IMG/VR virus record: IMGVR_UViG_3300044712_000833
Coordinates: 65,716 to 129,715 of that record
Reading direction: 5' to 3' (one strand)
Length of the DNA stretch: 64,000 nucleotides
From: a virus
Below the pieces are notes generated by a model. The model saw only the letters and a list, made by a program, of their open reading frames with translations. It made no database searches and was not told the origin of the DNA. This document shows positions 1 to 58,900 of the stretch, piece after piece (the first letter of the stretch is position 1; the number at the start of each line of letters is the position of its first letter). Position numbers and translations under genes: made by a program.

Positions 1-37
1 TAGTATCTGCATAAATGTCCTCTATAAAATGTGTCTT

Positions 38-490
38 TTATTGATCTTTTGATAAATTCTTAATTTTGATAACAATATAATCACGTTCATAAGAAACAAC
101 CTGCCATAAATTTTCACAGTTTATTTCTTTATCTTCATACTTATCATAAAAAGGGACGCTATATTGAAATTCTACCTTTTCTTCCTTTTCGTTTTTGCCT
201 ATAACACAAACAGAAGTAATATCTCTGTATTTTTCCATTCTTTTTGTAAATGGAATATGAAAATCTGGATAGTCAGTTTCTTGTAGTGTTTTATAGTCTT
301 TATTCTTTAATTTTATAATAACTTCTTCGCAACGTTGATGGTCATGAAATTGACCAGAAACATTAACAAAAGCATCTGTTTTAATTCCTATAACTACTAA
401 AGAGTGAAAGTCTTCTTTCGCTATTCTATATACTTCACAATTTTCTAAAACTAAATCTACAAACTCTATTTTTTCAATATAATTATTCAT
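38..490 (-). CDS. hypothetical phage protein
   Basis: 150-aa ORF in the minus-strand gene run; its stop codon lies inside the 18-bp motif. Confidence 0.75.
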   Translation of the reverse strand: MNNYIEKIEFVDLVLENCEVYRIAKEDFHSLVVIGIKTDAFVNVSGQFHDHQRCEEVIIKLKNKDYKTLQETDYPDFHIPFTKRMEKYRDITSVCVIGKNEKEEKVEFQYSVPFYDKYEDKEINCENLWQVVSYERDYIVIKIKNLSKDQ

Positions 491-493
491 TAT

Positions 494-679
494 CTACACC
501 ATATATTTTATTTCTTCTAACCAATCAGACAAGGTTTGAAAATCATTGAAGTCATCTCTATCAATTTCCAAGCCCTTTTCTATGTATGCCGTCATATCTT
601 TCATCCATGTCAAAAATTCAACTGTAGACAAACGTGTTTGCGGGGCTGTGTTTTTTAGTAAATCACTTGGTTTCAACAT
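494..679 (-). CDS. hypothetical protein
   Basis: 61-aa ORF tightly packed between neighbours. Confidence 0.65.
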   Translation of the reverse strand: MLKPSDLLKNTAPQTRLSTVEFLTWMKDMTAYIEKGLEIDRDDFNDFQTLSDWLEEIKYMV

Positions 680-683
680 ATGC

Positions 684-1385
684 TTATCCTTCCAATCTTT
701 TAACTGCTAAATAATATGGTTCTTTGTCGTACTCAATTCCAACATAATTTCTTTTGTTCAATTTACACCATTCTCCTAAAGTTCCTGATCCCATGAAATT
801 GTCAAGAATCCAATCTCCTTCGTCAGTAAAGGGAGAAATAATTCTGTCCATAAGTCTAAGAGGCTTTTGCCATCTAATTAATTTACCATCGTCTTTTCTC
901 ACTCTTTCATTCGCTACGGTCGTTAGAACAATATCATCAATCCATGCTGTTGCGGGTTTGGTATCTTTTCCAAACTTATTAAGTCCTTTGCTTTTTGCCG
1001 TAGCCTTTGGTACTTGAATTCTTTCAGGATAAAATTTCCAACCAGATTCCACATTTGTATAAATCATAATAGAGTCAAAACACTGATTGAATCTATCTTT
1101 CTTGTAATTACCCCATTCATTACGCCATTTAATGTCGTTAATAAATGTAGCACCGAGAACATCCTCCATATAAACTCTATATCTATAATCACTATGAAAA
1201 TCGCTCATGGCAATCATGACACCCCCTCTTTTCAACATTTTGAAATATTTGGAAGCCCATTCAAAATTTATGTCTTCATAAACATAATCTGAAAAGATAA
1301 GATCATATTCTCTATCTTTTTCAAACATCATATTATCCATATTTTTAAGGATAATTTCGGTTTTATCACCTAAAGTTTCGGTCAT
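684..1385 (-). CDS. DNA N4-cytosine/N6-adenine methyltransferase, beta-type motif order
   Basis: QKP motif, C-terminal SAM motif ILDNFMGSGT and GIEYD; atypical motif IV (SDYVY). Confidence 0.85.
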   Translation of the reverse strand: MTETLGDKTEIILKNMDNMMFEKDREYDLIFSDYVYEDINFEWASKYFKMLKRGGVMIAMSDFHSDYRYRVYMEDVLGATFINDIKWRNEWGNYKKDRFNQCFDSIMIYTNVESGWKFYPERIQVPKATAKSKGLNKFGKDTKPATAWIDDIVLTTVANERVRKDDGKLIRWQKPLRLMDRIISPFTDEGDWILDNFMGSGTLGEWCKLNKRNYVGIEYDKEPYYLAVKRLEG

Positions 1386-3673
1386 TATTTTCTCTTAAAC
1401 TCCTCAACATTATTTATTTTTTCGTAATCTACAATCCACCAAACATATTCGTCAGGTACTTCCTTAAACCCTTCTCCTGATTTCACAAACTTATTTTTCT
1501 TTTCAAAATTATTTAGAGAAACAATGTCTCCATATCTCAAAGGATTTCCATCAAAAAGTCCTTTTTTAATTTTGAATTTCTGTTCAGTACCTTTAGATAA
1601 AGAATAAAATGTAATACTTGGACTATATTTTAAATCAACTCCTGTAACCAATGCGTATTTAGCATTTACATCATAAGTAAGTTTTCTTTTATTCGCCTCT
1701 CTAACCTCTTTTTCTGTAATTTTCTTATCGAGAGGGCTGGAAGAAACACCTTTCTTTTTCTTCGTAATTTCTTGACCTAAAAAGTTCGTTCTTTTTCCAA
1801 AATCAATACTATTATCGAACATTGAAGTTTGAACAACACTTGGTTCAATTTCTTCAATCATCTTCTTGGCTTCTTTGATATACCATTCTTTGTTTACTAG
1901 ATACGACTCAAACGATTTGGACGGATCATATTCGTTTAGAATCTGAATCATCTTACCAACAAAGAGTCCAATTTGTCGTCCATCTCCGTGTTTCTTTAGA
2001 AGATAACCACCATAATTAGAAATATAAAATCTATTTGTTCGCTGAAGGTCTTGAATTCCAGAAAGCGTTTTTAGTTGCATCTGAAATTCTTTCCCTACTT
2101 TCTGGCTAATGCAAAAATCAAAAATATCTTTAGAAGCATTTATTGTTTCTTTTACAGGAGTATTATGAACAAAATATTCATAAACAGCCTTCGCAACAAT
2201 TGGGTGTTTATATCCCTTTTTTAGATCAATGTCAGGGATAAAAGCACCTTTAGTTTTGACCTTGCCTTTATTATCAATTGCAATATAGTTATTTACATCC
2301 CTTTTAATATAAGATTTGTAATATGTATATTCGAGAGTAAATCCTGTTCTTTCTTGCCATTCTTTACATACCTCATAGTACAAAGTTTCTTTTTTAATTG
2401 GAACTTCACACTCAATACCATCTGTATTTGCCGAAATACAGTGAATGCCGTTTAATTCAAGCATTTCAATCAGCATCAAAATATAAAGCTGTCCGGCAAT
2501 TGTGACTGAAAGCATAGCCTTTGCATCTTCCAACCAAAATGTATCAGAATTTAGTTTTCCATAAAGCCCATTGATAGTAATCTTCAGACCATCAGCTTTT
2601 GTTTTATTGTCTTTCTTTGCCGCTAAACGTTCGGCAGTAAGAATACTTAAAACCTTTACAAATCCTTCATCTAAGTGTTCAGGATAAATGTTATTTAGAA
2701 TAATACAAGTAGGGTACATACTAGCAATATCACAACTAATAATTTTCTTCTCTGGGGTTTCATCAAAACGACAAGATGACTCCATAGAGTGAATACCGCC
2801 TGATCCAATAGAATAACTTGTTCCTTTGTATTTAATAACTTCTTCAAATTTGAAGTTGTCATATCCCATTACCGTAGTATTCTTTATTTTTTCATGAAAA
2901 GAAATTAATTCTGGAGTTTGAAAACTAATTACAACAGGGATACAATCTTTCAGATCAACAGATGAACGTTTTGTTCTAAGGTCTTTGATTGTTCTAACAT
3001 CTACGCCTAATTCTTCTCTATAATAATGCTCCAAAATAATATTACCCATTTTGGAATCCGAAGCGTTCATTACATTCACATCATACAACGCCCCAATTTC
3101 TTCTCGAAGCTTGATTTGAGGTTGAATTTGATTAAAGAGTTTTTGAGTAATTAAAACATCATTGATATTATATTCTAGAACAGTTTTAACTTCTTCTTTT
3201 GTTGAAATAGGATAATCATACGGGTAGGGCAAATCCTGAATTCTTTCATGCTTTAGATTTACTGCACATTGCTTCAAACCAACGCCAAGTCTATCAAAGT
3301 GCATAATCTTGAATAAATCCATAGAATCCCAAGGATAGTAAATATCTCTTGGGTATCTTAGTTTAACAAGATCATCGTCTCGTCTATTAGCGTCTGAAAT
3401 CAATCTCTTAGACAAAGCGAATAGTTTTTTTGGGAGACCGACTCCAACAGTCTGCTCTAAAATAAAACGCAATGCAGGGTCGTCATAAGTAATACTGTTA
3501 AACCCAACTAATAGCATTTTTTGAGAACAAAAATCTTTCATAGATTGAAGGTCGTTGTGTCCACACCCGAAACTAAATTGAATTACTTCCTGAGTTTCTT
3601 TGTCTAAAAATGTCAGACAGGCAAAGCTAGGAAAAGATTCAACATCGTAAAAATATGTTTTTTCGTAATTCAT
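1385..3673 (-). CDS. polB: family B DNA polymerase with 3'-5' exonuclease
   Basis: ExoI YDVESF, ExoII FNSITYD, ExoIII YNINDV; polymerase motifs DIASMYP, KITINGLYG, NTDG; start placed at ATG 3673 after GGAG. Confidence 0.95.
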   Translation of the reverse strand: MNYEKTYFYDVESFPSFACLTFLDKETQEVIQFSFGCGHNDLQSMKDFCSQKMLLVGFNSITYDDPALRFILEQTVGVGLPKKLFALSKRLISDANRRDDDLVKLRYPRDIYYPWDSMDLFKIMHFDRLGVGLKQCAVNLKHERIQDLPYPYDYPISTKEEVKTVLEYNINDVLITQKLFNQIQPQIKLREEIGALYDVNVMNASDSKMGNIILEHYYREELGVDVRTIKDLRTKRSSVDLKDCIPVVISFQTPELISFHEKIKNTTVMGYDNFKFEEVIKYKGTSYSIGSGGIHSMESSCRFDETPEKKIISCDIASMYPTCIILNNIYPEHLDEGFVKVLSILTAERLAAKKDNKTKADGLKITINGLYGKLNSDTFWLEDAKAMLSVTIAGQLYILMLIEMLELNGIHCISANTDGIECEVPIKKETLYYEVCKEWQERTGFTLEYTYYKSYIKRDVNNYIAIDNKGKVKTKGAFIPDIDLKKGYKHPIVAKAVYEYFVHNTPVKETINASKDIFDFCISQKVGKEFQMQLKTLSGIQDLQRTNRFYISNYGGYLLKKHGDGRQIGLFVGKMIQILNEYDPSKSFESYLVNKEWYIKEAKKMIEEIEPSVVQTSMFDNSIDFGKRTNFLGQEITKKKKGVSSSPLDKKITEKEVREANKRKLTYDVNAKYALVTGVDLKYSPSITFYSLSKGTEQKFKIKKGLFDGNPLRYGDIVSLNNFEKKNKFVKSGEGFKEVPDEYVWWIVDYEKINNVEEFKRK

Positions 3674-3713
3674 GAGTTCTCCGTTAAATAAAAATCTTCC
3701 CAATCAAGGGAAG

Positions 3714-3742
3714 ATTATACCACAAGGTTTCAATTTTGTCAA
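3714..3742 (-). promoter_or_regulatory. sigma70-type promoter upstream of the polymerase
   Basis: TTGACA-17 nt-TATAAT with extended -10 TG. Confidence 0.85.
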
Positions 3743-4332
3743 GGATACTTTTCCTCTTTCCAAAGAGGACTTAGAGATTTATCATAAATCAATAAAAATC
3801 GATGTTTCCTACTTCTAGGTTTCCATTCTCCCTCTAACCCTTTAATCTTACCTCTGGAGTGTTTTGTGTAACTACCATCCACATTTTTTATCCAAAAATC
3901 TTTCTTTTCATCCGTTAGTCCATAATATTTAAAATTGCAAGCTTTATAAATTGTGCCAGAATGAAAATCACTGTCCGCATACGATAAAATAGCTTTTACG
4001 TTTGTGTCTTTTTTTAATTGTTTTATGGAACGAGAAACAAACCAAGAAGTTATATTATATTCTTCTTTTTGAGTCTCTGGTTCAACGCAAAGCCTACTTA
4101 ATTCAAAAAATCCATTCTGATTGCTTCTGTCCAGTCCAAACAATCCTTTAACCAATTCTGGAACAGGAAAACCAGTAAAAATTATTGATCCGACCAACTT
4201 TTCATTTTTAAAAAGTCCATAATTATACCCACTCTTAAATCCTTTTGAAATATCTTTTAGATAATGATGTTTCAAAAGGATTTCTGAAGCTTCTTTTTTA
4301 GATATGGATTTTATACAATATTCAGTCTTCAT
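3739..4332 (-). CDS. Mom-like GNAT DNA-modification protein
   Basis: HYL, ELSRLC and SYAD..HSGTIYKACNF motifs typical of the Mom family. Confidence 0.8.
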   Translation of the reverse strand: MKTEYCIKSISKKEASEILLKHHYLKDISKGFKSGYNYGLFKNEKLVGSIIFTGFPVPELVKGLFGLDRSNQNGFFELSRLCVEPETQKEEYNITSWFVSRSIKQLKKDTNVKAILSYADSDFHSGTIYKACNFKYYGLTDEKKDFWIKNVDGSYTKHSRGKIKGLEGEWKPRSRKHRFLLIYDKSLSPLWKEEKYP

Positions 4333-4564
4333 AAAATTATGTTTTTATTCATGTTTCAAGACAGGATAGAATATGTTCAGAACATATTCTGAATCTAGAT
4401 TCTCTATCCATTCAATTATTTCTTCTGGTTCAACAGGAGAACCAAATCTTTTTGAATTAGAATAAATGTCAACTTGTGCCTTTTTTATTAGTGAAATAAT
4501 ATATTCTTTAATAGCTTTAGACTCGTAATTCTCAGTCATTGATTTTCCTTATAAGTTCTTCATT

Positions 4565-5413
4565 TTATTCATAATTTTTATATAAGCTTTCAAATACATA
4601 CTCTTTATTGCTTTTACCGTTCAATCGTCTAAAAGAAGAATTACCGTTTTCTAAAAACTCATGGGATTTATAAATGTCGTTAGGTATTTTTATAACATAA
4701 TCTTCAGAAGTTGTTTTTCCATCAAAAGACAATAACCATTTTGCCTTCTGATTTCTAAGAAAATTCCAAAGAGTATTGTAATTATCTAAAGTACCATAAT
4801 ACATGCCTTTTATTCCAGCATAAGGGGGATCAAGATATATAACATCGTTTTCTGAAGTAGTTATGTTTTCATAAGATTGATTGATAAAAGTAACATTTCT
4901 AGACTCTATTACATTTTTCCATTGCAACATTATATCTAGAAGTTTTTCTGGAATAATTCCATTTCTGTTAGGGTGAAGAGGGTTGTTGAAGTATCCGTTT
5001 TTATTATATCTAGGCATCCCGTTAAATGTGGTTCTCATGATAAACATAAAGTCGTATGGGGACTTTTCTACATTAAACTTTTCTCTGACTTTAATGTAAT
5101 AGTCTTTCTTTTTATCCCAATCATCGATTGAGTTCATTTCTTTCCACAAATCTTTATAGTGCTTATAAACCCCCTCTGCGTCTAAAATAATGGTTTTCCA
5201 GAGAGATATTAAGTCGTTGTTTATGTCGCTTAGAACAAATTTGTTGACCTTTATAGATGATGTGGCTAATTTCACAAAAACACTCCCTCCTCCAACAAAG
5301 GGTTCATAATAAACATCTATTTCTTTAGGCATCATGCCCACTATTTTATCAGCCTGATTTCGTTTGCTACCAGACCACTTGATTACAGGGTTTATTTTTT
5401 TCATATTACGCAT
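4565..5413 (-). CDS. Dam-like (D12 class) DNA adenine methyltransferase
   Basis: KWSGSK, EPFVGGGSV, DIN, FNG..RYN, YLDPPY. Confidence 0.93.
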   Translation of the reverse strand: MRNMKKINPVIKWSGSKRNQADKIVGMMPKEIDVYYEPFVGGGSVFVKLATSSIKVNKFVLSDINNDLISLWKTIILDAEGVYKHYKDLWKEMNSIDDWDKKKDYYIKVREKFNVEKSPYDFMFIMRTTFNGMPRYNKNGYFNNPLHPNRNGIIPEKLLDIMLQWKNVIESRNVTFINQSYENITTSENDVIYLDPPYAGIKGMYYGTLDNYNTLWNFLRNQKAKWLLSFDGKTTSEDYVIKIPNDIYKSHEFLENGNSSFRRLNGKSNKEYVFESLYKNYE

Positions 5414-6303
5414 TATCTAATTGACAAAGCTGATCGTTCAATTGCTCTAACACTTTAATCCAAAGTTCTTCTTCCTCTTTGTTTTTAGGAGGAAAAGGTA
5501 AATCATCTATTTCATATGCTATCTCTATAATCTTATCTTTTATACTTGTCATTTTCACCTCTTAATAAAATGCCTATTTTATAATGTTATCTGTATCTGT
5601 TGAAATTAAGCCAACTGATCCTAAAAGCATAAAAGCAAAAGATACTTTCAAGTATAGAGAACTCATTATTCCATCAAGCCCAAAAAATAAAATATAAATA
5701 AGACAAGCACCTAATCCCACTAAACCAAAAATCCTTTGTTTCATTAGTAACCTCTTCCGTAGAAATCAAATATTTCTGCTACAGACCGAAAAGCCAATTC
5801 GTTACAGTTATTACCTAACACATTTCTTAAATTTTCAGCATATCTTTTCACATGTTCATAAAAGTAACTGTGTTGAGAATTTTTTGAAAAATAATTTCTC
5901 AAAAGTCTAGTAAAATCCATAAATCCATCTGTAGGGTCTTCTCTTCCGTTCTTTGAAGATAAATATGCTGATTCGACTGCTGTTATCAGTCTATTTATAT
6001 CGTCCCAAAAGTAAACTGTTTGTTGAAGTTGAGTTTTCATAATATTTTTATAAAATGTATGCTTTATAATGGTTCCAGCAATTTTTGCATTGCGTGATGA
6101 AAGCTATCACAAATCATATATTTATCTTCTCCATCAATATAGAAGCACCAACCTTCACCCTCTGACCAAGCAACGTGTTTTCCAGTATCTCTAAAAACAA
6201 GGCTAACAGGGTAGAGACTCATTATATACTTCATTTCTTCTGTATTATTAGCATGTTCTATTTGTTCTTTTTTCATATTTGCTCTTTCGATAAAATATCG
6301 CTT

Positions 6304-7671
6304 TTATTCATCGTCTTGTATAAAAGAAGGTTGTTCAGGCTGACCGTTTTCTTCCTGTTCCATATCGTACATTCTAAGAAAATCGCCTTCCCATCCAAGT
6401 TCTCTTTTTCCTTTTTTGCCTTCTCGATTCTTTACCCAAAACACCGCTGGCTTTCTGGTTGTTCTAATCATAACAACTGCATTGGGAGCCTTACCGCCAG
6501 CCTGACTTAAATCGTTAAGTTGATAATCATAAATCTTATCACGATATTCTGATCCGCCTTGACCACTAACTTTTTTATTTTGATGAACTGCTATGATTGC
6601 TACATCCATTTCTCTCTGATAAGCTTTTAATCGATAAGAAATATAATTAATCTTAATATGTTCGGGTTGCGAGTCACCGCTTCCACCTATCATTATTTGT
6701 TCAATTTGGTCAATAAAAATTACCTTTACACCATCAGCAACAGCTTTTCTGATTTTTGTTCTAAGGAGTGGTAATGTCATTTCAGAGGAATCGTCATAAA
6801 CGAGAGGAGACTTTGAAATTTTTCCTAAAGCTTCTTGATACTTAACTAATTCACTATCTGATAATTGACCCTTTTCGATTCGAATTTGAGATATGCCAGT
6901 TTGTCTCTGAACAAGCTTGTTATTAATTTCTTCAGCACTAGACTCGAAGGTAAAAAGTTTTACTTTTACTTTTTTAGTTTCTTCAGGATTTATTGCGATG
7001 TTATAAATAAGATTAAGTACTAAGGTTGACTTTCCTTCGTTTTGTTCTGAAGCAATAAGATAAAATCTAGGCGCAATTCCACCAGCATATTCATCCCAAA
7101 ACTTAAGACCTGTTTCAATATACCTAGATTTTCCGTTGATGGTGTCTTGAAATTGTTGAATATTCTTTTCTGCAACATCCTTAGATGTTCTTGTGTTTTG
7201 AGTTGGTGATCCAACATACGCACTAATTTTACCAGATTCAAAGTCCATCATGGATAAGATTTCAATTGGACGTTTACCTTCCTCAACACCCTTTTTAATC
7301 TTTTCTGCCAACGCAGTTAGCTGTCTACTCGCTCTTAATTCTGAAATTTGAAAAGCGTAATTTTCAATTAATTCTGGACTTGAGTCCATATTTTTCAGAT
7401 AATCTAAAGCATCTCTTCCATATAATTTTGTATTTGGAATGTTTATTTTTTCCAATAAACTTTTTCTTTCAAGATAATGAGAGATAGTATCAATGTCTGG
7501 ATACAAATCTGATTCTACTGTATCTTTAAAAGCCTCGTACAAAACCCCGTAAGGAACCCATCCAAAGGACGGTTTTTCTAACATGTCCTCTACTACAGAG
7601 AACAATGATCCATCTTTAAATAAAATACTAATTACATGAGCTTCTATGTTTTCATTATATGTTTTTGCCAT
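6304..7671 (-). CDS. dnaB: DnaB-like replicative helicase
   Basis: DnaB-type N-terminus, divergent Walker A ASEQNEGKST, FTFES, IFIDQI, KNREG. Confidence 0.85.
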   Translation of the reverse strand: MAKTYNENIEAHVISILFKDGSLFSVVEDMLEKPSFGWVPYGVLYEAFKDTVESDLYPDIDTISHYLERKSLLEKINIPNTKLYGRDALDYLKNMDSSPELIENYAFQISELRASRQLTALAEKIKKGVEEGKRPIEILSMMDFESGKISAYVGSPTQNTRTSKDVAEKNIQQFQDTINGKSRYIETGLKFWDEYAGGIAPRFYLIASEQNEGKSTLVLNLIYNIAINPEETKKVKVKLFTFESSAEEINNKLVQRQTGISQIRIEKGQLSDSELVKYQEALGKISKSPLVYDDSSEMTLPLLRTKIRKAVADGVKVIFIDQIEQIMIGGSGDSQPEHIKINYISYRLKAYQREMDVAIIAVHQNKKVSGQGGSEYRDKIYDYQLNDLSQAGGKAPNAVVMIRTTRKPAVFWVKNREGKKGKRELGWEGDFLRMYDMEQEENGQPEQPSFIQDDE

Positions 7672-8150
7672 TAATCATCATCCTCCTTTAATATAGACTT
7701 CAAATTCTTTAAAGTTTTCTTTTTAGCTTCAGCAGAGGCTACTTCCACCTTCTCTACTGGTTGAACTTTGAATTCTTCACTTGACTTTTCTTCGTCATTT
7801 AAAGTTCTAACTGCATTTATCAAAAGTCCTTTAATAGAAGCTGGACGAATAATCATAAATTTTTTATTTAGATTATCATAATGTCCTTTTGCTATATTCA
7901 TTGCTTTTTTCATTTTTTCTTGAGAGGGCGCAACTGCGTTCAGTTCGTCTAATTGGAGAATCCACTCTTCAAAATTAGATTTCTGTTTTCGATTGGGAAT
8001 GCCGCCTTCTGGAATATTGAATGTCTTATATAACAAACGAAGAGTCCCAATAACTCTTTCTGGATAATGGGTAAAGTGTTCTGGATCATTTCCCATTTTT
8101 CCAAAATAAAACATACCGTCTAAAATGTCGCCTTTCTTATTTTGAGACAT
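7671..8150 (-). CDS. hypothetical protein between primase and helicase
   Basis: AAGGAG SD before ATG 8150; overlaps both neighbours. Confidence 0.7.
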   Translation of the reverse strand: MSQNKKGDILDGMFYFGKMGNDPEHFTHYPERVIGTLRLLYKTFNIPEGGIPNRKQKSNFEEWILQLDELNAVAPSQEKMKKAMNIAKGHYDNLNKKFMIIRPASIKGLLINAVRTLNDEEKSSEEFKVQPVEKVEVASAEAKKKTLKNLKSILKEDDD

Positions 8151-9027
8151 ATAACTCCTTTGGAGCGTTTTTTGCGTAATGAAATATTGTAGCAATTGTT
8201 ATTTGATTCGGAGTAAATCTTTCCCAACGATACTCTAAAGCGTCTCTATCGTATTTAGAACTTTTCTGAGACCACTTATCCCATAAAATAAATCCCTCTT
8301 CCCCCAAAGTCTTCAAAGCAAGACCTACGTTTATCCATGAGAAATAATCTTCACATACCCATTGAGGTATTTTGTCTAAAGCCGTTGCTACTCGTTTTAA
8401 TGTTTTATCAGAACTCTCATTGTAATTACTTTTTGAGTTCTGTTTTTTTTCTTTTCCACGAAGCCAATCAAATTTTTCCTCTAAATCTTTAGGTAAATTT
8501 GCTGGTTCTCTACTCCAATCGTCAGCCATTTTATATTCTTTTTTAATTCCATCCTCGTAAATATAAGACGGAGGAACAATAAAATAAGCACCTTCTGATC
8601 TAATATCTACTCCTGCTTTTACGTTGGCATGGCTATTCATTGTCCCTTTATAAACAACGTGTAATCCTCCAGAAGCAGTTATAGAATGCAAAGCTCCTTG
8701 GTCACTTATTCCCATAGAAGCAAAGCTGTCAAATCCCTTTTTTCCGCCCCTAACGTCAATGTCTAATACAGTTATATTAGATTTCCCACAATAAATGCCA
8801 ATACAAGCTTCAGGGTATCTACCCCACCATTCCTTGATTTGTTGAATGTCTAATGTAGCCATTTTAAAACCACCCTTGTTATAAGGGGCTTTGGTTGGAA
8901 TTATTATTGTCTTTCCTTTTTCATTTACAAACGGCTTGCTAGGCTTTTCTCTTGCAGGAAAAACATACCACCCACGCCTAGCATATTCAATTGCCTTTTC
9001 AAGTAGAATGTTTTGCATTTTATTCAC
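8137..9027 (-). CDS. bifunctional primase-polymerase (Prim-Pol) with PriCT-2-like domain
   Basis: A..YARRGWYVFP, VLDIDVR, TASGGLH, VPPS; C-terminal W..VGLALK...W..WS. Confidence 0.9.
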   Translation of the reverse strand: MNKMQNILLEKAIEYARRGWYVFPAREKPSKPFVNEKGKTIIIPTKAPYNKGGFKMATLDIQQIKEWWGRYPEACIGIYCGKSNITVLDIDVRGGKKGFDSFASMGISDQGALHSITASGGLHVVYKGTMNSHANVKAGVDIRSEGAYFIVPPSYIYEDGIKKEYKMADDWSREPANLPKDLEEKFDWLRGKEKKQNSKSNYNESSDKTLKRVATALDKIPQWVCEDYFSWINVGLALKTLGEEGFILWDKWSQKSSKYDRDALEYRWERFTPNQITIATIFHYAKNAPKELYVSK

Positions 9028-9493
9028 TCCAATATTCGTCTGATCCGTAGTCGTATATAATAGGGCTATGTTTTCCTATCATTCCCCAATTTCTATTTTC
9101 GTAATGCGGAACATCACCTATATCGTATTTTTTACAAAATTCCTTGACAATATTTCTTATCTCATCTGTTCTTTTATGAGAAGTAAAATGCAATCTTTTT
9201 TGAACAAGATATAACCCTTTTTTATCACATTTTACAACTGGTGCAAAATAATCTTCGTCCTTGTTTTTAACAATATATTTCCACTTTAAACTTTCTAATA
9301 TATTTTGCTCAATTGAAGAATCATCTTTCTTGTTTAAAACTACCTTAACAACATAATCTTTATGTAAGAATATTTCTCTACAATGATTGCGCCAAGGAAT
9401 GTTCTTTTTCTTTAATAATTGATTATCTAAATAAACGTCTTTTCCAATTATTTCCACTGTCAGCATATTTTTATACAGGGATGTTATTGGCAT
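9020..9493 (-). CDS. minimal protein-kinase-like fold protein
   Basis: VVKV lysine, helix-C Glu, D-x5-N catalytic loop, IYDYG (DFG-like). Confidence 0.6.
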   Translation of the reverse strand: MPITSLYKNMLTVEIIGKDVYLDNQLLKKKNIPWRNHCREIFLHKDYVVKVVLNKKDDSSIEQNILESLKWKYIVKNKDEDYFAPVVKCDKKGLYLVQKRLHFTSHKRTDEIRNIVKEFCKKYDIGDVPHYENRNWGMIGKHSPIIYDYGSDEYWSE

Positions 9494-9512
9494 CCCTGTA
9501 TTTATAAAATTT

Positions 9513-10124: not shown

Positions 10125-10130
10125 TATTAA

Positions 10131-10535: not shown

Positions 10536-10550
10536 TTTTATTTAGTCTCC

Positions 10551-11495: not shown

Positions 11496-11507
11496 TTATC
11501 CTCCAAA

Positions 11508-12005: not shown

Positions 12006-12094
12006 TGTTTTCTCCTTTTTTATTTTATTTTTTACTGCGATTTTATCATCTAAAAATCACTTCATTATTATAACCTCCAATTTAATTTTATAGG

Positions 12095-13200: not shown

Positions 13201-13202
13201 AG

Positions 13203-48350: not shown

Positions 48351-48886
48351 TTATTTTCTCCTGTTTGTTTATTGATTATACAATAATTATAAAACAGTTA
48401 TTTAGATTTGTCAAGGTTTCTGAAAAACTCATCTATCAAATCTTTTATGTACGATCCATTTTCAACTGTTTCCTGAACGTTTTTAAAATCAGGATACCAA
48501 TATCCAATTACAGAACTATAGTTTTGAGGGTTCAAATACCATTTTTTATTGATAACAACTATAGAAACCTCGTCGTCTTCCATTTCGGTGACAAAAGAAA
48601 AGCTTAACCAATATTGATTTTCGGATAATAATTTTAACATGTTTATAAAACCCTTATTTTATTTAAAATTCTGAGACTCGTATACCTTATCGCCCAACAT
48701 CCACAAAAAGAGACCGATAAGGGGAAAAATCAAACCAATAATTGTAACAACTCCTCCAATAAAATTACTATCTAAATCGAGCAACATTTTTATGTATCCC
48801 GCTGTAAAAATTATTGGTAAAATTCTAAAAATAAATAGTGTCAAAATTTTATTATTCATTTGTTCTCCATAAAAGCATCCTTTTAT

Positions 48887-49576
48887 TTATTTCCTTTTCT
48901 CATTTGTTGGCTTCAGCCAGATTGATCCAGAAAAACAAGCCTTAGCCAACAAAGGATAATCACTAAAGAGTTTCATTGTATCGAAGGTATTCGACGCGAA
49001 CATTTTATGAACTTCGTTTTGAATTCGTTCTTCTGAAACCATCTTGAGTCTATCCATCCAGCCATGAGAGGTAAAAAAGTACATAATATCTGAGTCAACA
49101 CTCATGTCTTTTGTAATAGAAAATCTCAATGCTCTAAGGAGTCGAAGGGAATCCTTTATCATTTTGTCTCTAGTATCGCCTACACATCGTATAAAACGAC
49201 GACTAATATCACTAACTCCCCCGAATGGGTCAATGATTTCCCCTGTCTCAACGTTTCTGGCGATGGCGTTCATTGTAAAATCTCGCCTAGCAAGATCATC
49301 AAAAATGTCTCCTTCTTCGACATAATCAGGACGACGACCATCCGAGTAAGTTCCGTCTTTCCTACAAAGAACAAAGTCAGCCGCGATTTCATTTACGTTA
49401 GCCCGAATAGTAAAATATTCAGGACTTTCTAAATATATTTTTCCACCCTCGGCAATTATGTAATCGCGCATTGCTTCATAAGAGGGTGCTTCTACTGCAT
49501 AATCAACATCTTTATTTTGCAAACCCATAAACTCATCTCTGAGTTTTCCACCAACTTCATATACTTTAATTTTCAT
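48887..49576 (-). CDS. tRNA nucleotidyltransferase / poly(A) polymerase family
   Basis: VGG.LRD, DVDY, DLARRDFTMNA, DPFGG, D.LR.LRA.RF, ERI..E. Confidence 0.93.
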   Translation of the reverse strand: MKIKVYEVGGKLRDEFMGLQNKDVDYAVEAPSYEAMRDYIIAEGGKIYLESPEYFTIRANVNEIAADFVLCRKDGTYSDGRRPDYVEEGDIFDDLARRDFTMNAIARNVETGEIIDPFGGVSDISRRFIRCVGDTRDKMIKDSLRLLRALRFSITKDMSVDSDIMYFFTSHGWMDRLKMVSEERIQNEVHKMFASNTFDTMKLFSDYPLLAKACFSGSIWLKPTNEKRK

Positions 49577-52500
49577 TTAATCCTCAAAATAATACAAATT
49601 ATGTTTCTTGACAATTTCATCAACATACTTTTTTAGAAATTCTCTGGCTTGTTCGTCGTTTTCAGGAATGTACTTTAAAGTAATCCACTCGAAATTAGGT
49701 TTTCCTTCAATTTCTTTATTGACTGATAATTTTATACGAATTCTTTTATCGCTACTGCTCCAATTCGGGTGAGCAATATATCCGCACACTTTACCGTTAA
49801 TTTTAATATCAATGTCTGGATCACCAGCCCCAACTGATGCTAAACCCGTTACTTCTGGATGCTTTTTGAAACGAATTTTATTTTTCATAATATTAATTAT
49901 AAGCGAAAAACCCTTGCTTGTCAAGGGTTTAACAAATGTTTCTTTGAACCACATTCCATACATAAATATAGCTTTTTACTGTAAATTCTTCTCTTCCATC
50001 GTGCGCCCTCATAGCCTCTAAAAGACTCGTGTAACCATGTCTAGGAAGTTCTTTTAAATTCTCTAATTCGGATATTCGAACAACAAAGTAAAGTTCATGA
50101 ACAATTACAGGAGTCATTTTCATTCCTTTATAAAACAGTGATTTTATTTATGTTCTTTGCAGATGCCCCAACGCCAGTATTTAGGGACTATTTGATCCGA
50201 AATCCATTTTCCACACAAGCCGCAATGACAGCCCGTAACTAAATCATCGACTTGGTAATATCCGTAATCGTTTAAGATAGACTTAATCTTATTTTTTATA
50301 AAACTAAAAACATTCATAATATTCTGATCCTATAAAATTACCATTTTATTCATATGCAAGTTTCTGTCTAACAAATTCATTCACAGAAATTTCTTTTACC
50401 AGCCATTTACGAAAACGACCTTTCACTTGTTCAAAAGACGTTCCTAAAACCCATCGTGTTTCAACTTGATTAGTGACCATAAAGCATTTTTTACCTTCAG
50501 CTAAAGCCCGAAGAATGTTATAGTGTTTCATATTTATTCCTCCACATAGATAAAATGCTAGTTTTATTATGACTCATATTCTAAATGAGAAATTTCTTTG
50601 TAATCTTCAGGTGGTTGAGTCGATAAACTAAATTCTATTCCAAAAGTTTTAGCATATCTGTCTCCACCATATTTAACAATTCGTATGTCAGAAGATTCCA
50701 AATTTGGAAAATCTTGTTTAGCAACGGAAACTAATCCTTCGAATTTATCATACTGTGATCCATAATTAGATTCTCGTATGACAAAATGATAATCACCATT
50801 TTTTGCAGGGCAAAATTCTTTAATTAACATTATTTACTCTCCCAAATTTCGCCCGACAATATACCATCTTTGATTTCGTCCGATCCAAATTCGATAGTAA
50901 CAGAAGAGAAGAAACCAGCATCAAGAATTTTTACATATAGAGTTGCAGAATGTTCAGTGATTGTTTCATACCCAACAACCTTAAATTTCATGTTACCTGT
51001 TTGATAAACTTTATCTTTCATTTTTTCGTAGTTCATTCTTCGTCTCCGCTTGGGATATAGAATTCGTCGGTATATTCTGTAAAGTCACGTTTAGCAATTA
51101 AATTTCGCCCTTCATCTGTATTAATATAATTCCAAACCCTATCAACCAGAGTTTCAGGATCATTGGCTGTAAAAATCATAGGCGATGAGGGGTAGGGAAA
51201 TCGAACAGAGTAATTATTATGAGTAGTAAGTTCACTAACAAGAGCATGTTCGCAAACATAATTAATGATAGTTGACTTTTCCATTTTGTTTATCCTTAAT
51301 AAAATTTATGTTTTATTCGTTTACCAGTCTTCTTCGTCTTCAAATTCATCAACAGAATCTAATTCATCATCTCCATTTTGATTTTCAATTTCTTCCCATT
51401 CAATATCGGGAAAATAAATAACTACTCCCAGCCCCATAGAGTCCGATTTTGCCCCCATAAAAAGAGGAGTAATATCTTCCAATTCAATACCATCATCATG
51501 AGATTCAACATAGGATTGAATAGCTTCTGCAATGGATAAGAAAGCGTCAAACCCATTTTCCCCACTTTCAAGATTGAAAGACAAGCATTTCTTTCCGTAC
51601 ACTCCGCGACCAGAATATGATTGTGTTTCAAATCCCGCATCTTCTACAATATCTTGCAAATCTGAAAAATTCATTTTGATTCTCCTGTTATTTTTTTTGT
51701 TTTATCAAATTTCGCCCAATAAAAGAATACTTTTATTCATCCGCTACATGTATCTCAAGACTTTCCCAAAACTCTAATTTTTCAGTTGTTTCAGTTCCCT
51801 TTTCAACCTGTGTCACATATACCAAAATCCGAGGAGAGTCTTTTTCAGGAAATTGCTGAAACAATTTTACATTATAAAAAGTCTTTCTTGAGCCATCCAA
51901 TTCTTCCAATATTAACTTCATAATTCATCCTTTACATAAAATACAGATTTTATGTGTTAAAAAGAAGTGAAACAAACGATTCTCTTCCACAATTAAAGCA
52001 ATCTTTGTTGTAAACATTGTTTTCTTCGTCACAAAAAACACAAATCTTTGTAAGGTCTTCAGATTCGACACTCTTCCACGTAGTATATTCTTCCTTTTGC
52101 CAAAAATAGAATTCGCCTCTTAGAGAATGAGAATTATAATCACTTACTCTTTCTCTCGCTTCTTCCTCTGTTTCAACATTTTCCGCACCCCATTTTCCAT
52201 ACTCGTCTAACATCCAAATAGCATAAGGTTTCATTTTCATTTATCCTATTCGTTGATAATGCAAGCCAAACAGGTTACTTTGAAGGGGCATTTGTTACAA
52301 TTTTCGCCCGTTTCATTTACATAAAAATCTTTCGACTGATCCAAAGTTGCATTTGGTAAAAGTTCTCCGTTTGCAATCAACGTTGAAAGGCAGAGAATAT
52401 CTTCAATACTTTCGGCGTTTTCAATCTTAGGATGAGTAACGGTTAGAGTCTTTACGTTTGTCATTTTAGTTTTCCTTGTTTTCAATTTTCGCCCTTTGAA

Positions 52501-54505
52501 GAAGAAATCGGGCTTTTTCTTTGGCTTGAGATTCGTCATCCCAAAAACCTACAATGTCTTTTGGGTCAAGACCACCTTTGTATTGATTACAGAGTCCTTC
52601 GGTCAAATCCGTTTGAAAGCAAATGTCTTCCAGTGTTGAATTTTTGTTCGGTTTGGTTACAACCCAAAGGCGAGATATTTTCATTTGATCCTCTTTTAAT
52701 AAAACCTTGATTTTATAAATTAAATATTTATTGTTGAAAACTCAACACTATAGCCAAGTAATTGCAACTCAGTTTTCAACCACATAGCTACTTTCATAGC
52801 CGATTTCTTGTTCTTGAAAAAGCAATCGCCATCATCAAATTTTCCGCTATTTTCAACAACCTTTTTATGAAAAGAATCGTTTCCTAAGATGACATCAGGA
52901 TTAGCTACGAAAACGTCTTCAAATCCATCATCGTCTAAATAATATTTGTTTCCGTTTTCATCTCGATTATTATCCAAGCAAATACTTACGCAGTAAATAT
53001 TATCCCCAGACTTTGCCTTTGGAAATAGAGTCTCTAAACTCCCCCAATTTTCCAATCTTTCACAGGAAACAGATAAATCAATATTGTTCAAGAATTGTTT
53101 TCCTTGATAATTCATTTGAGACTCCTTTTGTTTATCTGAATAAAATCCTCATTTTATCGATTAGAGTTCTCCCGGCTGTCTTCCAAAGCCGAAAATAGTC
53201 CAAACTTTATCCATAAATTTCGATTTTGTCATACTGCTTACTTCACCAGCACCAGATACAAAAATCGTAAGTGTTCCGTCTTTACAGTCCGAACTAGGGG
53301 AAAAATTCAATCTGATTTCTTGATTGATATTGTTTCTTTTAATCTTTACAACAACTTCTCCCGTATTAACATCTCTGCTAACTTTCATGTCTGAGTTTGT
53401 TGGATAATCTGCCATTTTTATTCTCCTTATTCATTGATATAATAATTATAGCACACTACTAAATAAAAAGCAATAGAAAATTTCGCATATATTAATTGCA
53501 ATTTTCGCCCGATAATATTAAGCCAGTGTAGACATTGTATTTATTATTAGGAGTCCTAACAACTCTAGCGCGACCATAAACGATAGGTTCACCGAGTCCG
53601 TTGTTTTCTTTTTCAGTCCAGACATCAACCTCATCAAACAAAAGTAGAATTTCATCCAGAGAATAAAACTTAAATGTTTGCCCCGCATTTAGTTTGTGAG
53701 AAGTGAAAATTTGCGCCATTGTTTTATCCAAAGATAACGAGAGAAAAACCAATGCCAAATAACACAACAATCGCAATTACAAAAATAGTTGTTCCCATAT
53801 TTTATCCTTTTACATAACCTTCTTGAATTAGAAATTTTTCAAAATTAGCCAGTTTCTTTTTATTCTTGAAAATTTTTATATCAAAGAAAGGACTCCCGTC
53901 ATTGTGAGTTTTATATCCGTCATGAAAGTTGACAAGATACTTACACTTGGCGACCCCATACATTATGTTATATGTTTTGTCCATAAAATGATCCTTTTAT
54001 TCGTTTACGACTTTGAAGATAGAAATTTCAGATAGCAAAATTTCTTCTTTGCTACCAACATACAGGGAAATTGTTATCATATTGTACCCATAATGAATCT
54101 CTTCTACATTAAGTATGGTTTCCTGATTTCCATTTTTGTAAGAAATGTGAATTAACATATTTTCTCCTAGAAAATTTCGCCCGATATAAACGTTAACTTT
54201 GATCCAAAAACCTGCATGATTTCAAAATACTTTTCTTTATAAATTACAGGGTCATAAATGTCATAACTAACCGACTGAGGTAACCATGACCAGAGATTAT
54301 TACAAACTGAACGCAAGTATTCATCTATTTTTTGACCTGTTTTATCGTCAGTACGATATTCTTCAAATTTCTTAGTCTCAAGATTGAACAATCGAATTAC
54401 CCAAAAGGTAACACCGTTCTTATTTATAGGATTAACTGTCATTGTAAATTCGTTTTGGTCAATCATTATATTTTCTCCATATATAAAAGATTACTTTTAT
54501 TAATA

Positions 54506-54988
54506 TCAAACCGCCATATCCTTTACAATCTCATCTTGCCCCATATCTAGCAAGACTTCCTTAAGTTTCGCATAGAATTCAGCCCGACCATTATCATACA
54601 GGCTAATACCCATTTCACGGACAATATCAGCGGCGTAGTGGATGGTAATCATGTGAATTTGTTTTTCAGTCAGAACATCCCCAAAGTCTGCGAGAAATTC
54701 CATATTACCTGAAGAGTAATTTGCATTCCAGCCAGCAGATTCAATGTGTTCAGTATCAGAGTCAATGTACAATACTTTCAAGGTATCATAGGTTGACTTC
54801 TTAGGGGCATTCCAGAATTCGCCAGCCTTGCGAGGATCGGTAGTTTGCCGAACAACGCGCATACCCTTTTTCTTGTCTGATTCAATCCAGACACGCATTT
54901 TACAGCGCAAACGAAAACCAAAGGGGTAATCTTCAATAATAAAGGCGGTATCTTCTGAAGTGTGAATTTGTTCTAATAGTTGTTTCAT
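54506..54988 (-). CDS. hypothetical phage protein
   Basis: 160-aa ORF, DYPFGFRLRC..R.WIE..WNAPKKSTY. Confidence 0.75.
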   Translation of the reverse strand: MKQLLEQIHTSEDTAFIIEDYPFGFRLRCKMRVWIESDKKKGMRVVRQTTDPRKAGEFWNAPKKSTYDTLKVLYIDSDTEHIESAGWNANYSSGNMEFLADFGDVLTEKQIHMITIHYAADIVREMGISLYDNGRAEFYAKLKEVLLDMGQDEIVKDMAV

Positions 54989-55067
54989 TTGTTTAGTCTC
55001 CTGTTTTTATTGATACATCTATTATAATCGATTTTCGCCCTAGTAACATTGCAAATTCATTGCAAAA

Positions 55068-55432
55068 TTATTCAATAAACAATTTTTCATTTTCTACCCA
55101 AGCGGATTTTTCGCCCATTGAACGAGCAATATCAGAAAATAAATCAGCACAGTCTCCCCAAATTTCAGGGCGATCCCAAAAACCAACACCGTGACCATTG
55201 CGAGTCAACCAAAAATCATGACCCATTTGGTTCATAATCTCTTGATTGCTCCAATCAATAATGAAAGTTTTCTTTTTGTATTCCTCATTAGTCAATATTT
55301 TTTCAATAAATGAGTAGCAATCTTGATAAGTTGATTTCCATGAATCAACATCGAAACCGCTTCAAAATATGCCCCCATAATTGAAAGAGCCTTATTTGTA
55401 TCATTTGGTGCATGGGACGGGTTTTTATTCAT
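55068..55432 (-). pseudogene. frameshifted phage gene (GHDFWLTRNGHG family)
   Basis: ATG 55432 frame reads ...AYFEAV; the C-terminal frame GFDVDSW...GHDFWLTRNGHG has no start of its own. Confidence 0.55.
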
Positions 55433-55530
55433 AAAACTCCTTTATTTTGTTATAATATAATTATACCAAATATCTTTATAAATTGCAAGAGCAAATTTCG
55501 CATAGAATAATTGCAGATTCATATTAAAAA

Positions 55531-55656
55531 TTATGACCTATCTTGATTATTTCTTAGTTTTGATCTATGCTGGATAAATCTTTGATTAGGGTTTACACTT
55601 AGTCCTATATATTTCTTGCCATTAACTTTATTTTCAATACAATAAATTTCGCCCAT
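55531..55656 (-). pseudogene. truncated GIY-YIG endonuclease
   Basis: MGEIYCIENKVNGKKYIGLSVNPNQRFIQH, stop after 41 codons. Confidence 0.75.
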
Positions 55657-55659
55657 TGA

Positions 55660-55932
55660 TTACTTAATTCTCTTTCTTTCTCTTGCTATATCAGTAATTA
55701 AAGTTCCTTGTAAGTGATGACTCTCATGTTGTGCAATACGGGCAAGCATTCCAGATAATACAATCGACTTAGATTCTCCGTCAGATGACGTGTAATCTAA
55801 CGTAATAAAATTATGACGTTCAATAAGACATAGAAGATTAGGAATTGATCCGCATCCTTCCCAGTCCCACGATGTACCTTTGTCTTTGTGACGTTTGATT
55901 GTAGGATTGATAAAGGCTTGCCAAATTTCGCC
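55660..55932 (-). pseudogene. def: peptide deformylase C-terminal fragment
   Basis: Manual translation AFINP...EGCGSIP...ARIAQHESHHLQG; no start codon and motif I absent. Confidence 0.85.
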
Positions 55933-58900
55933 CTATGTAAAAGGCGAGTCGGTCTTCGGCGGTAATAGTTTTGATCCAGTCTTTACCTTTCAGAGTATAA
56001 CGAGATTTGAAAAGGTTAGGATAAATCATTATATCGTTATAATTACTTCAAAATTAGGTTTATCAGGCATGACTCGGTCAATTCCATATTTACGACTCGC
56101 ATAATCTAGAGTCTTATCGTACATTTCAATTGCAGATTCGTAATTATTAGCATATGCGTTAGGGCGAAACGTTTTTTCTACTGTTTGTCCTTCTATAATC
56201 CCCCCTACAATCCAGTCATATCCATATTCGCTTATATATAACTCACATTCTCCGCATTTTTCTTGATATAAAACTTTTCCGATTGTTTCCATGATTAACT
56301 CCTTGATTATTTATACTTCAATTATAGCAGAGAAAAATATAAATGTCAATGATTTTTTATTGCAGGTTCATTACAGAAAATTTGCCCTTATGAATTAAGT
56401 AAAATTTCCGGCATGAGTTCAGTCATTTTGTTATAAATCGTTTCCCACTCAATTTGATCTCCGCAATGAGTAAAAATAATATAACGTAAGAGAGACTGAA
56501 TAGATTTGTCTTGAATATTATAAAGTAAGTTAGACAACATAACTTTAATTTCAATATCTCGCACAGAATCTACTTTTTGAGGTTCAGGCATTCCTTCCCC
56601 CTTCCACATTTCAAGAATTTTAGAAGGATGAAAATTAATAAGTCCAAAAGAGTATTTTTTCTCAAGGATTTTCCAATCGTTTACGCTTAGAGAATTATGC
56701 CATTCGATAGCCTTATCAATTTCGTTTGTCATTTTAGACTCCTAGTTTCTTTGTTAAAAGTTCTTTATGGTTACTGTGAATAAGGTCATTTTGCAAGTCT
56801 TCAACAAGAGACTTTTTAAGGGCAATGCAAAACTTTTCGAAAACCTGTAAAATCTTTTCTACGTTCCCTTCAGCCTTACGAAAAGACAACTTGCGCCGAC
56901 CATAAGCAGAATATTTGTCTTCAGGCTTAAGCCAGTACGATTTATTGACATTTTCAATTAAGATAATTTCGGGCAATTCGGAGTCGATTGTAACATCTTT
57001 GGAAAATTCGCCCGATGGAGTCACAATGCGAAAGGTAATGTGTAGCATGTCATTATCCCAGTAACTCCTTGAGTTTTCTTCTTTTGATCCTGCCAAGAAA
57101 AGATTAACGTAAATGCTAGAATAAAAGCGAGAGTCAAATTTCGCAAACGCTTTACTATGTGGAAAGTGTTTATTATAAATTGACTCAAGGCTAGAGCATA
57201 ATTTAGATGTAATCATTGTGACTCCTTATTTATTTAAACCTGAGAAGGTAATGGAAGTTCAATTTTATTTAAGAGACAAAGTACCTTTTTTGCTTCCGCA
57301 AGATTTTTACCATCTGCAATTAATTCTCCATCTCCATTATCTGCAAAAATTTTAACTCCTTTGAATCCGCTTTTACTTTCAAAGTGTTCAATTTTTACAT
57401 TCCAGCCAGAATTAACAAACCGCGTAATAATGTCCATTTTTTTGATTTCCTTTTTTGTTATAACTAATTATACCCTATTTTGCCCCTAGAAATATTGCAA
57501 AATCATTACAAATTTTTATTTAAGATGTCTATGTAATCAAAACAAATTTTTTTGTAATTTTGGAATCCCCCTCGCATTGATAAAATAGAAAACTGAGTCA
57601 TTTGATGACTTGTAAACCCTTCAGCCAGCATAGCCCGCCAAACATAGCCACCCATAGCGGTAACAGAAGTTTGATCTACATTATCCAAAGAATATTTTTC
57701 CATAGTTGACTCCTTATAAAATGGCGATTTTATCCAAGTTATTTGGTATAAATCCTGAACCCATACCCCTGCTTTGTGGGTTCGGTAGTAAAATTAGACT
57801 TTACTTTGTTCCTAATAATCCCAAGATTACAAGAATTAATATAATCCTCTATAAATTTCTCTTGATATTCGGTAAATGGTTTTAAATTGCTGATGGGTCT
57901 AATATAAATATGACCCGTCAAAGCATGAATGATTTTTACAGGGAAAGGGAAAGATTCAGATTCTAATTTTGCGCCCATGTTATGACTCCTGATCCTGACT
58001 TTCGCCCATCAAATAATCATAGGCGGTTTTTGTGATAACATAAGAGTTCCGTTCAGCCCGCATTACGTAGACCGTCTTAAAGAATCCCTTTGCTAGATTT
58101 TCTTTATCTTGATTATATTTGATAACTTCAGGATGATTAGGATTACCAAACGGAAAATCCCAAGAGCGGCAAATCTGACGGAGTCGCTCCGCTTCTTTTT
58201 CTTCTTTGTTGTCATCCCGTACCGTTTCAATAGAAGGGCTATAACCTTCATTCTTAAGGGTCTCTAACCATTCCTTGACCGTCATTACTTTTTTATTGTG
58301 ACGGATAAGGGAATTTAAGTATTTTTCAGTCCGTGCCTTTTGCGCTTGAGTAATCATTACGACTCCTTGTTTGATACAATAATTATAACCCAATTTTGCC
58401 CCTAGAAACATTGCAAAAACGTTGCAATTATTTGATTTTTTCTATCTTTACACAGTCTCCGGTATAAAACCTATACCCCTTAACTCTTGATTTTCCCTTA
58501 GTAACCGTAATCATGGTCATTTTATCATCTGATTTTATTTCTACAACCTTACCAAAATCGGATGACTCCATAAGAAGAGAGTTATTAAAACTGTAAGTTA
58601 CTTTATCCCCTACCGCGATTCCTTCTAAATCCGATTGTTCTAAAATTACTTGGGGAAGGTCTAGTAATAATCCTGTTTTATGAAGTTCAGGAATATCTTT
58701 AGCGGGAACATAACACCAGTTCCCAAAATGAGAAGTTACCCTATAAGAATCTCTACTTATAATACCTTTTAATTCAATGTCTGAGATTTTTAAACCGACT
58801 TTCCCCAACTCCTCGGTTAAGACTTCTTCCATTGATTTATTTTCACTATAGGGAATATCGACTCGGATTGTTTTAATCATTTTTGAATACCTTTAAATCA

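Follow-up and report, generated by a model that had tools for sequence, protein, structure and literature searches.

Why should one 18-bp palindrome recur at the gene junctions of a phage genome, each time around a different centre? We address this question for a stretch of 64,000 nucleotides (the window), positions 65,716 to 129,715 of the IMG/VR virus record IMGVR_UViG_3300044712_000833, which carries a long series of sites of the form ATAAAA-N6-TTTTAT, that is, two inverted arms around a 6-bp core. The record is 129,715 bp long, with the window as its second half, and is made up of a plus-strand structural arm and a minus-strand early arm. A recombinase ahead of a very long tail gene, together with a helicase and a polymerase, gives it a layout like that of SPbeta, suggesting an SPbeta-like phage of about 130 kb. 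An earlier, sequence-only reading had taken the sites for the borders of small gene cassettes shuffled by a phage recombinase, as in an integron. Our comparisons confirm the observation and support the interpretation in part, as the logic of the system appears to be an addressed exchange between genomes and not a cassette array blind to the core.

The window contains 45 perfect sites against 0.19 expected (100 shuffles, largest count 3), which agrees with the earlier estimate of less than one copy by chance. Indeed, the 41 perfect and nine one-mismatch coordinates listed by the sequence-only reading are all correct, and four perfect sites (17715, 21095, 31725 and 61612) had been missed. The enrichment concerns the 6-bp spacer only, every other spacer from 0 to 15 giving 0–1 perfect match in the window, and the 45 cores are mutually distinct, so that a core of fixed length and variable sequence, as originally described, is retained. 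Sites follow each other at a median spacing of 867 bp (range 202–6986). Additional one-mismatch copies were found at 4796, 11868, 25219, 30670 and 46611; because other spacer lengths yield 2–10 one-mismatch matches in the window, some of these additional copies are due to chance. The ATAGAA-type arm, said to prevail among the variants, is present in six of the nine first listed. In the whole genome, 53 of the 56 perfect copies belong to the early arm. The weak coding-strand consensus is ATRA-ATAAAA-core-TTTTAT, with mostly G or T at core position 1 and mostly A at position 6; conservation is limited to the 18 bp and this weak 4-bp 5′ extension, and the inner bases AAAA and TTTT occur in every perfect site. 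Inverted arms around a fixed 6-bp spacer correspond to the geometry of tyrosine-recombinase sites (6–8 bp).

The sites are fused to gene boundaries, as the sequence-only reading had noticed. Among the 53 perfect sites of the early arm, the stop of a long open reading frame (ORF) lies within 12 bp in 46, a Shine-Dalgarno sequence (SD) plus ATG follows downstream in 41, and both are found in 38, compared to 23, 27 and 8, respectively, for 196 lone ATAAAA half-sites used as control. Of the 72 sites found when one mismatch is allowed, 29 have the stop within the left arm and 12 have an ATG that overlaps the right arm, and cores starting with GG complete the SD for genes whose start lies inside the right arm. 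Many inter-site segments consist of one small gene. Two perfect sites, 17715 and 21095, are located inside conserved genes; the former may have been captured or may be a coding coincidence.

Relatives of the window were found among metagenomes and by a two-site motif pattern run over viral loci (searches of viral contigs started from the window recombinase, from its alignment or from the 637-aa protein gave no match). The metagenome locus L002 has a recombinase with 97% identity, and 13.8 of 20.9 kb of its DNA align, at 82% identity. Of its 19 sites with at most one mismatch, 13 carry cores of the window, all in the same order, when chance gives a mean of 1.2 and a maximum of 7 in 5000 draws. 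The cores of the one-mismatch sites 20010 and 28124 reappear there in perfect sites. Similarly, 10 of 14 sites of G036 (78% nucleotide identity in aligned parts) share cores in order (chance 0.9, maximum 5), and an unrelated, independent pair of genomes (G027/G029) displays a like pattern of shared cores. Taken over L002, L003 and G036 (38 sites), 26 cores are shared with the window and 8 sites are unshared; the 50-bp flanks of the 26 shared cores are homologous on neither side in 18 cases, on one side in 4 and on both in 4, and the island of identity is often the 18-bp site alone. Of the 28 cores matched in this lineage, where aligned parts show about 80% identity, 26 are identical and the other two are one point variant. 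Among the alignment ends, 7 of 18 for L002 (background 6%) and 7 of 21 for G036 (background 5%) are no more than 20 bp away from a site. Contigs of four sequencing runs, of which run X1 may be where the window itself comes from, were compared at 80% likeness. Since most joints at that level are short-sided and possibly from other organisms, we used just two long records: a 796-bp contig of run X4, identical to window positions 23993–24643, ends three bases beyond a site, and a contig of run X3 is described below; run X2 contigs gave near-identical pieces with no joint listed. The comparison of breakpoints with the motif, which the sequence-only reading had proposed as a check, thus places gene gain, loss and replacement in relatives at the sites. 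Conserved order, orphan cores (Table 1) and breakpoints at sites show, on the evidence of sequence comparison, that the cores behave as positional addresses.

The phenomenon extends to cultured phages. The two-site pattern matched 65 viral loci; whole-record counts, made for 39 of them, gave 41–53 perfect sites in G006, G011 and G003, and six motif-rich genomes hold 34–59 sites each. In SPbeta, TAAAA-N6-TTTTA occurs 34 times when 2.35 copies are expected (0–3 for other spacers). In a 39-kb virus record, G031, four close copies of the motif lie at 34371–35571; three of them share one core, and the repeat seems to be of another kind. We compared 50–80 kb from seven cultured phages (SPbeta, phi3T, Goe11, Goe13, Goe14, SPR and SPbetaL4; the Bacillus set), whose core lists are nearly identical, without a single order conflict in 3066 core pairs. 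The genes beside these cores vary: two or more flank alleles were found for 26 of the 32 recurring cores, and in 365 pairwise same-core matches the flanks are homologous on both sides in 113, on one side in 148 and on neither in 104. A homologous flank lies next to another core at only 19 sites, of which 10 have both flanks homologous and are point variants; counted by allele, 8 of 70 recurring flank alleles adjoin more than one core, 4 of them point variants. One-flank switches in the pairwise comparison therefore amount to 148 with the same core versus 9 with different cores, and the window's lineage gives 22 same-core sites with a changed flank versus 5 true different-core junctions.

Breakpoints in the Bacillus phages point to the same sites. 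For BLAST blocks of at least 100 bp over SPbeta 82.5–134 kb, 59 of 233 block ends are near a site when 5.8 are expected, and block ends occur at 18 of 20 motif junctions versus 36 of 74 others (Fisher P 0.0006, the motif windows being wider, 140 versus 92 bp). Recent exchanges were taken as near-exact blocks of at least 500 bp: where these give way to unrelated DNA, 31 of 39 ends lie within 12 bp of a site (background 1.6–2.9%), or 36 of 39 if one mismatch is allowed (about 21 of 24 distinct ends), compared to 6 of 170 where homologous DNA continues beyond the block. In addition, matching cores are avoided within genomes. Over six unrelated genomes with 276 sites, identical core pairs number 0 versus 4.3 expected (column permutation, P 0.014) and one-mismatch core pairs 41 versus 63 expected (P 0.0015). 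Such an avoidance is expected if matching cores recombine, which would delete the intervening DNA.

Junctions between different cores also occur. At 7 of the 38 sites of L002, L003 and G036, a flank adjoins a different core in the window genome; five of these are true hybrid junctions, and the remaining two represent one point variant. Among them are the loss or gain of the 281-aa gene and a move of the 59-aa gene (Table 1). In the run X3 contig the 59-aa gene adjoins a third core, and the joint falls within that core (side of 185 letters, 80% likeness); this gene is, judging from its joints, a module moved between slots. Therefore, gene loss, gain and moves at non-matching sites occur in the window's lineage, and cassette-style changes are, by the same comparisons, a real but minor route. 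Note that some sites are only 19–20 bases apart, like empty slots (62817 and 62837 in the window's genome, G000; 124128 and 124147 in G003), and that the cores of such a close-set pair are ~950 bases apart in G036.

Tyrosine recombinases cut at the edges of a 6–8 bp overlap, and most of them need identity in the overlap. We consider it probable, from these sequence patterns, that the sites are recombination sites whose overlap serves as a positional address, so that crossover between related phage DNAs at matched cores would swap genes. The wider proposal, with slightly better than even chances, is that SPbeta-like phages, SPbeta included, have a dedicated site-specific ‘mating’ system made of one phage tyrosine recombinase and a population-wide ordered set of 30–60 mutually incompatible sites. 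In matched-core exchange, two inverted arms would flank the 6-bp overlap region, and each population would share an ordered address list along the accessory (early) arm, of which each genome would hold a repeat-free sub-list. When two related phage DNAs meet in one cell, the recombinase would cross same-core sites, and two crossovers, or one combined with ordinary homologous recombination, would swap the unrelated genes in between; swapped genes would stay intact, since the left arm supplies a stop and the right arm an SD or ATG. Self-deletion would be avoided because no two cores within one genome match. Rarer crossovers between non-matching cores would delete, insert or move genes and create new alleles, and crossover between sister copies could resolve multimers, perhaps as the everyday role. 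Both catalysis by a tyrosine recombinase and this role on multimers are what we infer.

Two enzymes of the genome are candidates for the catalysis, and both show the R, K, HxxR, H/W and Y residues. The sequence-only reading had designated the XerA/XerC-like enzyme encoded in the window. It appears intact, its six catalytic positions being unchanged in 36 aligned sequences; sites surround all four long loci of its clade (L002, L004, L006 and L007), down to 44% identity, and closer relatives are found in G001–G005 and G009. SPbeta has only distant matches to it, and the type was not found in G006 (160 kb, rated 100% complete, 41 perfect sites; the last 179 bases were outside the scan), whose single detectable tyrosine recombinase is of the tail-linked YomM type. 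Thus the presence of this enzyme among sites stands, and its designation as driver is weakened. The YomM-like type occurs in all near-complete motif-rich genomes examined (G000, G001, G002, G003, G006, G028, SPbeta, Goe11, SPR, L4, FADO and BcoS-136), but also in motif-poor ones (see below); with its presence alone in G006, it is the better, though unproven, candidate. A YomM-like catalyst and some other enzyme, or several, appear about equally plausible, each falling somewhat short of an even chance, and the XerA/XerC-like enzyme would be clearly the less likely choice. Neither enzyme reaches the XerC or XerD cut-off, and they score 39.4 and 21.8 bits for the integron integrase TIGR02249, whose cut-off is 265. 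Enterocloster phage CB457P1, which has a recombinase match and no motif, was considered as a sign that the window enzyme is insufficient and was set aside, since an archaeal XerA-type structure scores at least as well as it does (~1e-35).

Several observations weigh against matched-core exchange by such an enzyme. Pairwise counts among related phages are not independent; 174 of the 233 SPbeta block ends are away from perfect sites, only 49 of 74 non-homologous ends are at a site when blocks of at least 200 bp are taken, and alignment ends in the window's lineage coincide with sites only in the 7 of 18 and 7 of 21 cases given above. In the four-allele test, only 1 of 25 cores gave the signature of reciprocal exchange (seven genomes), and the depletion of near-identical cores reaches P < 0.05 in only one of the six genomes taken singly, that of the window. 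YomM-like enzymes are also encoded by the motif-poor LW81, SEP9, G014 and W08 (7, 10, 6 and 4 relaxed sites, respectively), and YomM (AF020713 40301–41335) and YopP (78670–79767) of SPbeta read HxxK for HxxR, with the tyrosine kept at the expected place. Finally, the ends of the phi3T-to-phi3Ts replacement, an event reported in the available text of 10.1101/2020.05.06.055103, are not at sites, and in four laboratory hybrids no parent switch could be pinned to a lone site. The hybrids switch parents within identical blocks of 1.4–18 kb, some of which start or finish at sites, or within short site-free homologies, and are therefore uninformative on lone sites. Together with phi3Ts, they nevertheless indicate that ordinary homologous and illegitimate recombination also shape these genomes.

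Two places in SPbeta can be mentioned separately. The site at AF020713 39885, just downstream of yomM, is the start of an 18.6-kb near-exact block in common with phi3Ts. The 16 recombination points published for the hybrids include, in the available text, one non-homologous point ‘following yosA’, and the SPbeta site 116414 near yosA, with flanks unrelated to phi3T, could bear on the exchange claim.

The main rival is a passive palindrome, whose arms are kept because a dimeric protein with a regulatory or DNA-organising role binds them, and which serves only as a linker for general or single-strand-annealing recombination over the 18–25 bp of identity present when cores match. It would account, without a site-specific enzyme, for matched-core swaps, for breakpoints at sites and for the avoidance of identical cores, and the motif co-occurs only loosely with any one recombinase. 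Moreover, as far as the available texts go, SPbeta-like phages have turned the tyrosine-recombinase fold into a repressor (PMC10516654), and hybrids arise by ordinary homologous recombination (10.1101/2020.05.06.055103). This rival fits most of the data, but not the identity of the spacers amid 20% gene drift, since the free spacer of an operator would be expected to drift, whereas 26 of the 28 matched cores have stayed identical. Islands of 18 bp are also generally known to be short for homologous recombination. In addition, the 15-bp element of the known SPbeta repressor, at about ten promoters, differs by its description in the available part of PMC10516654, and the ATACA-N7-TGTAT palindrome found close to several SPBRE genes is another element, which the window's genome lacks. 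We therefore regard a purely passive role as rather unlikely.

The array initially envisaged, from which single genes would be cut out as circles and put in at any core by the XerA/XerC-like recombinase, in the manner of integrons or Tn916, appears improbable. The many one-gene segments, the gene found beside three cores, the five mismatched-core junctions among 38 sites of three relatives and the sites around the four loci of the enzyme's clade all agree with it. However, core-blind insertion should give different- and same-core junctions at about 1:1, by our own estimate, whereas the Bacillus set has 9 and 148; few recurring flank alleles (8 of 70) lie beside more than one core, the core order shows no conflict in the Bacillus set, both enzymes fall below the integron-integrase cut-off (39 and 22 bits versus 265), and G006 lacks the presumed driver. 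Exchangeable modules, breakpoints at sites and tyrosine-recombinase geometry are thus what remains of the cassette proposal, while the use of any core is not supported, given the fixed order and, in the Bacillus set, flanks that nearly always keep to one core. A motif acting only in RNA, as a processing or translational-coupling hairpin, would be in line with its position between stop and start and with the GG-initial cores that complete an SD, but folding was no better than for shuffles at five of six sites (z −1.2 to 0.05, and −2.5 for one), Rfam matches were tRNAs only, and unique ordered cores and breakpoints at sites would be left unexplained. We consider this alternative, which the sequence-only reading had also raised, highly improbable.

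Matched-core exchange has partial counterparts in known systems, cited here for the available parts of their texts. The closest is the Acinetobacter xrs/pdif system of XerCD (10.1101/2024.04.09.588662), where several two-arm sites with differing 6-bp centres flank accessory genes, differing central regions block excision, and matching ones on co-resident plasmids lead to co-integrates and exchange. In the phages, cores likewise differ within a replicon and match between replicons. Unlike xrs/pdif, the phage sites do not have the conserved ATAA-core-TTAT motif, their inner bases being AAAA and TTTT; they number 34–59 per genome in one conserved order, they are fused to stops and starts, and their arms are common to SPbeta and to phages with unrelated core lists. 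The enzyme is probably phage-encoded, and since the arms are symmetric, one protein would suffice. Like the PeSLs of T4-type phages (PMC2839356), the sites are repeated intergenic elements associated with gene gain, loss and replacement in variable regions; PeSLs are promoter-terminator repeats of ~100 bp recombining within one genome, whereas the phage sites are 18 bp long, avoid matching within a genome and have position-specific cores. Short conserved boundary sequences at mosaic junctions have also been proposed for module exchange (PMC3029335), there through general homology and missing at most junctions, whereas a single palindrome with a fixed spacer covers most recent non-homologous junctions here. 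Integrons, including phage-borne ones (PMC9892861), share small promoterless-looking genes with stop-containing sites in between, but the phages have no integron integrase and no long foldable attC, only an 18-bp A/T palindrome, and their gene slots keep their order. SPBRE, bound by MrpR (YopR, SroF), is another repeated intergenic element of SPbeta-type phages recognised by a protein of tyrosine-recombinase fold (PMC10516654, 10.1101/2025.11.27.690993); the repressor in question is catalytically dead and its 15-bp element occurs at about ten promoters, versus 34 motif copies in SPbeta, the two elements being compared here by description.

In engineered cassette exchange, heterospecific lox or FRT spacers are mutually incompatible and the segment between them is swapped. 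Such systems are artificial and use few sites, whereas the phage system would be natural and genome-wide. It has long been asked how unrelated phage genes come to be joined so exactly at their boundaries, and the usual answer is illegitimate recombination followed by selection. In a model phage group, most recent non-homologous junctions sit on one designed-looking site with position-specific cores. If the wider proposal of a dedicated ‘mating’ system is true, phage mosaicism would have an evolved enzymatic cause, the accessory genome would be a series of numbered, swappable slots, and the sites would form a natural library of orthogonal recombination sites; a recombinase with dozens of such cores would be useful for engineering. 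Since SPbeta, phi3T and related phages can be grown in laboratory Bacillus subtilis, matched-core exchange is open to direct test, and it could give a function to the unstudied YomM or YopP. Full-text literature searches, whose coverage excludes most subscription papers and the original SPbeta genome paper, gave no description of the motif; it is unmentioned in the available text, supplements excluded, of the SPbeta papers PMC8270828, 10.1101/2021.11.22.469490, PMC10516654 and 10.1101/2025.11.27.690993, and a whole-word search for yomM gave unrelated papers only.

Table 1. Sites, candidate recombinases and mobile genes (window coordinates unless stated otherwise; sites are given by their starts or spans)
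Feature	Position	Strand	Remarks
Perfect 18-bp sites, part 1	24, 4331, 5565, 6290, 13276, 17715, 19248, 19490, 19717, 21095, 21882, 22764, 23826, 24623, 25994		starts
Perfect 18-bp sites, part 2	26342, 27201, 28379, 28709, 29314, 31020, 31725, 33383, 35010, 38113, 38359, 38566, 40267, 44435, 46438		starts
Perfect 18-bp sites, part 3	47313, 48645, 48869, 50130, 50332, 50550, 51299, 51719, 51936, 52699, 53140, 53983, 54483, 57716, 61612		starts
Perfect-site series overall	24..61629	.	runs on past window start within same early arm
One-mismatch sites at gene junctions	6050, 9504, 20010, 25219, 28124, 28988, 33868, 34282, 34784, 37906	.	span 6050..37923
Orphan address, core GAAGGA (coding strand)	29314..29331	-	18-bp site identical in L002, unrelated DNA on both sides
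Orphan address, core TAGGCA	5565..5582	-	identity with G036 exactly 18 bp, flanks unrelated
Site inside ORF	17715..17732	-	within 186-aa ORF 17545-18105, a conserved gene; core kept in L002
Site inside gene	21095..21112	-	in RlaP-family gene 20954-21871; arms kept in L002, L003 and L004, cores point-variant
XerA/XerC-like tyrosine recombinase, 286 aa	20027..20887	-	R145, K167, H236, R239, H261 and Y270 invariant
YomM-like recombinase, 331 aa	genome 38398-39393, outside window		just before tape-measure-sized gene; catalytic residues intact
59-aa gene	38373..38552	-	beside three downstream cores: GGATAA here, GGCAGA in L002, GGAACA in run X3 contig
281-aa gene	21904..22749	-	between sites 22764 and 21882; absent in L003, where core of 22764 is directly on flank of 21882
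84-aa gene	19738..19992	-	between sites 20010 and 19717; in L002 two other cores flank it, with extra genes on both sides

Among the neighbouring genes, tRNA-Gly, -Lys, -Met and -Trp and a fifth tRNA-like match of 113 bases lie on the minus strand at 12284–13273 and 15441–15553. The site at 13276 is three bases before tRNA-Trp, and L002 keeps this site without window positions 13202–13269, which form the tRNA body. The 637-, 402- and 271-aa proteins (13367–15280, 42597–43805 and 39453–40268) had no PHROG match, and the first two had no Pfam match either. The early arm also encodes two Mom-family proteins (3739–4332 and 37437–37889) and four DNA methyltransferase-like proteins (684–1385, 4565–5413, 35024–35770 and 36462–37160), which suggests heavy DNA modification against restriction. 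An RlaP nucleotidyltransferase (20954–21871), an RNA ligase beside a kinase-HD protein (40503–42532), a poly(A) polymerase head domain (48887–49576), a macro domain (30510–31007) and a SLOG protein (23840–24361) form a possible RNA-repair and counter-defence set. With DNA-modification and RNA-repair genes as its cargo, the exchange system may therefore speed up the evolution of counter-defence.

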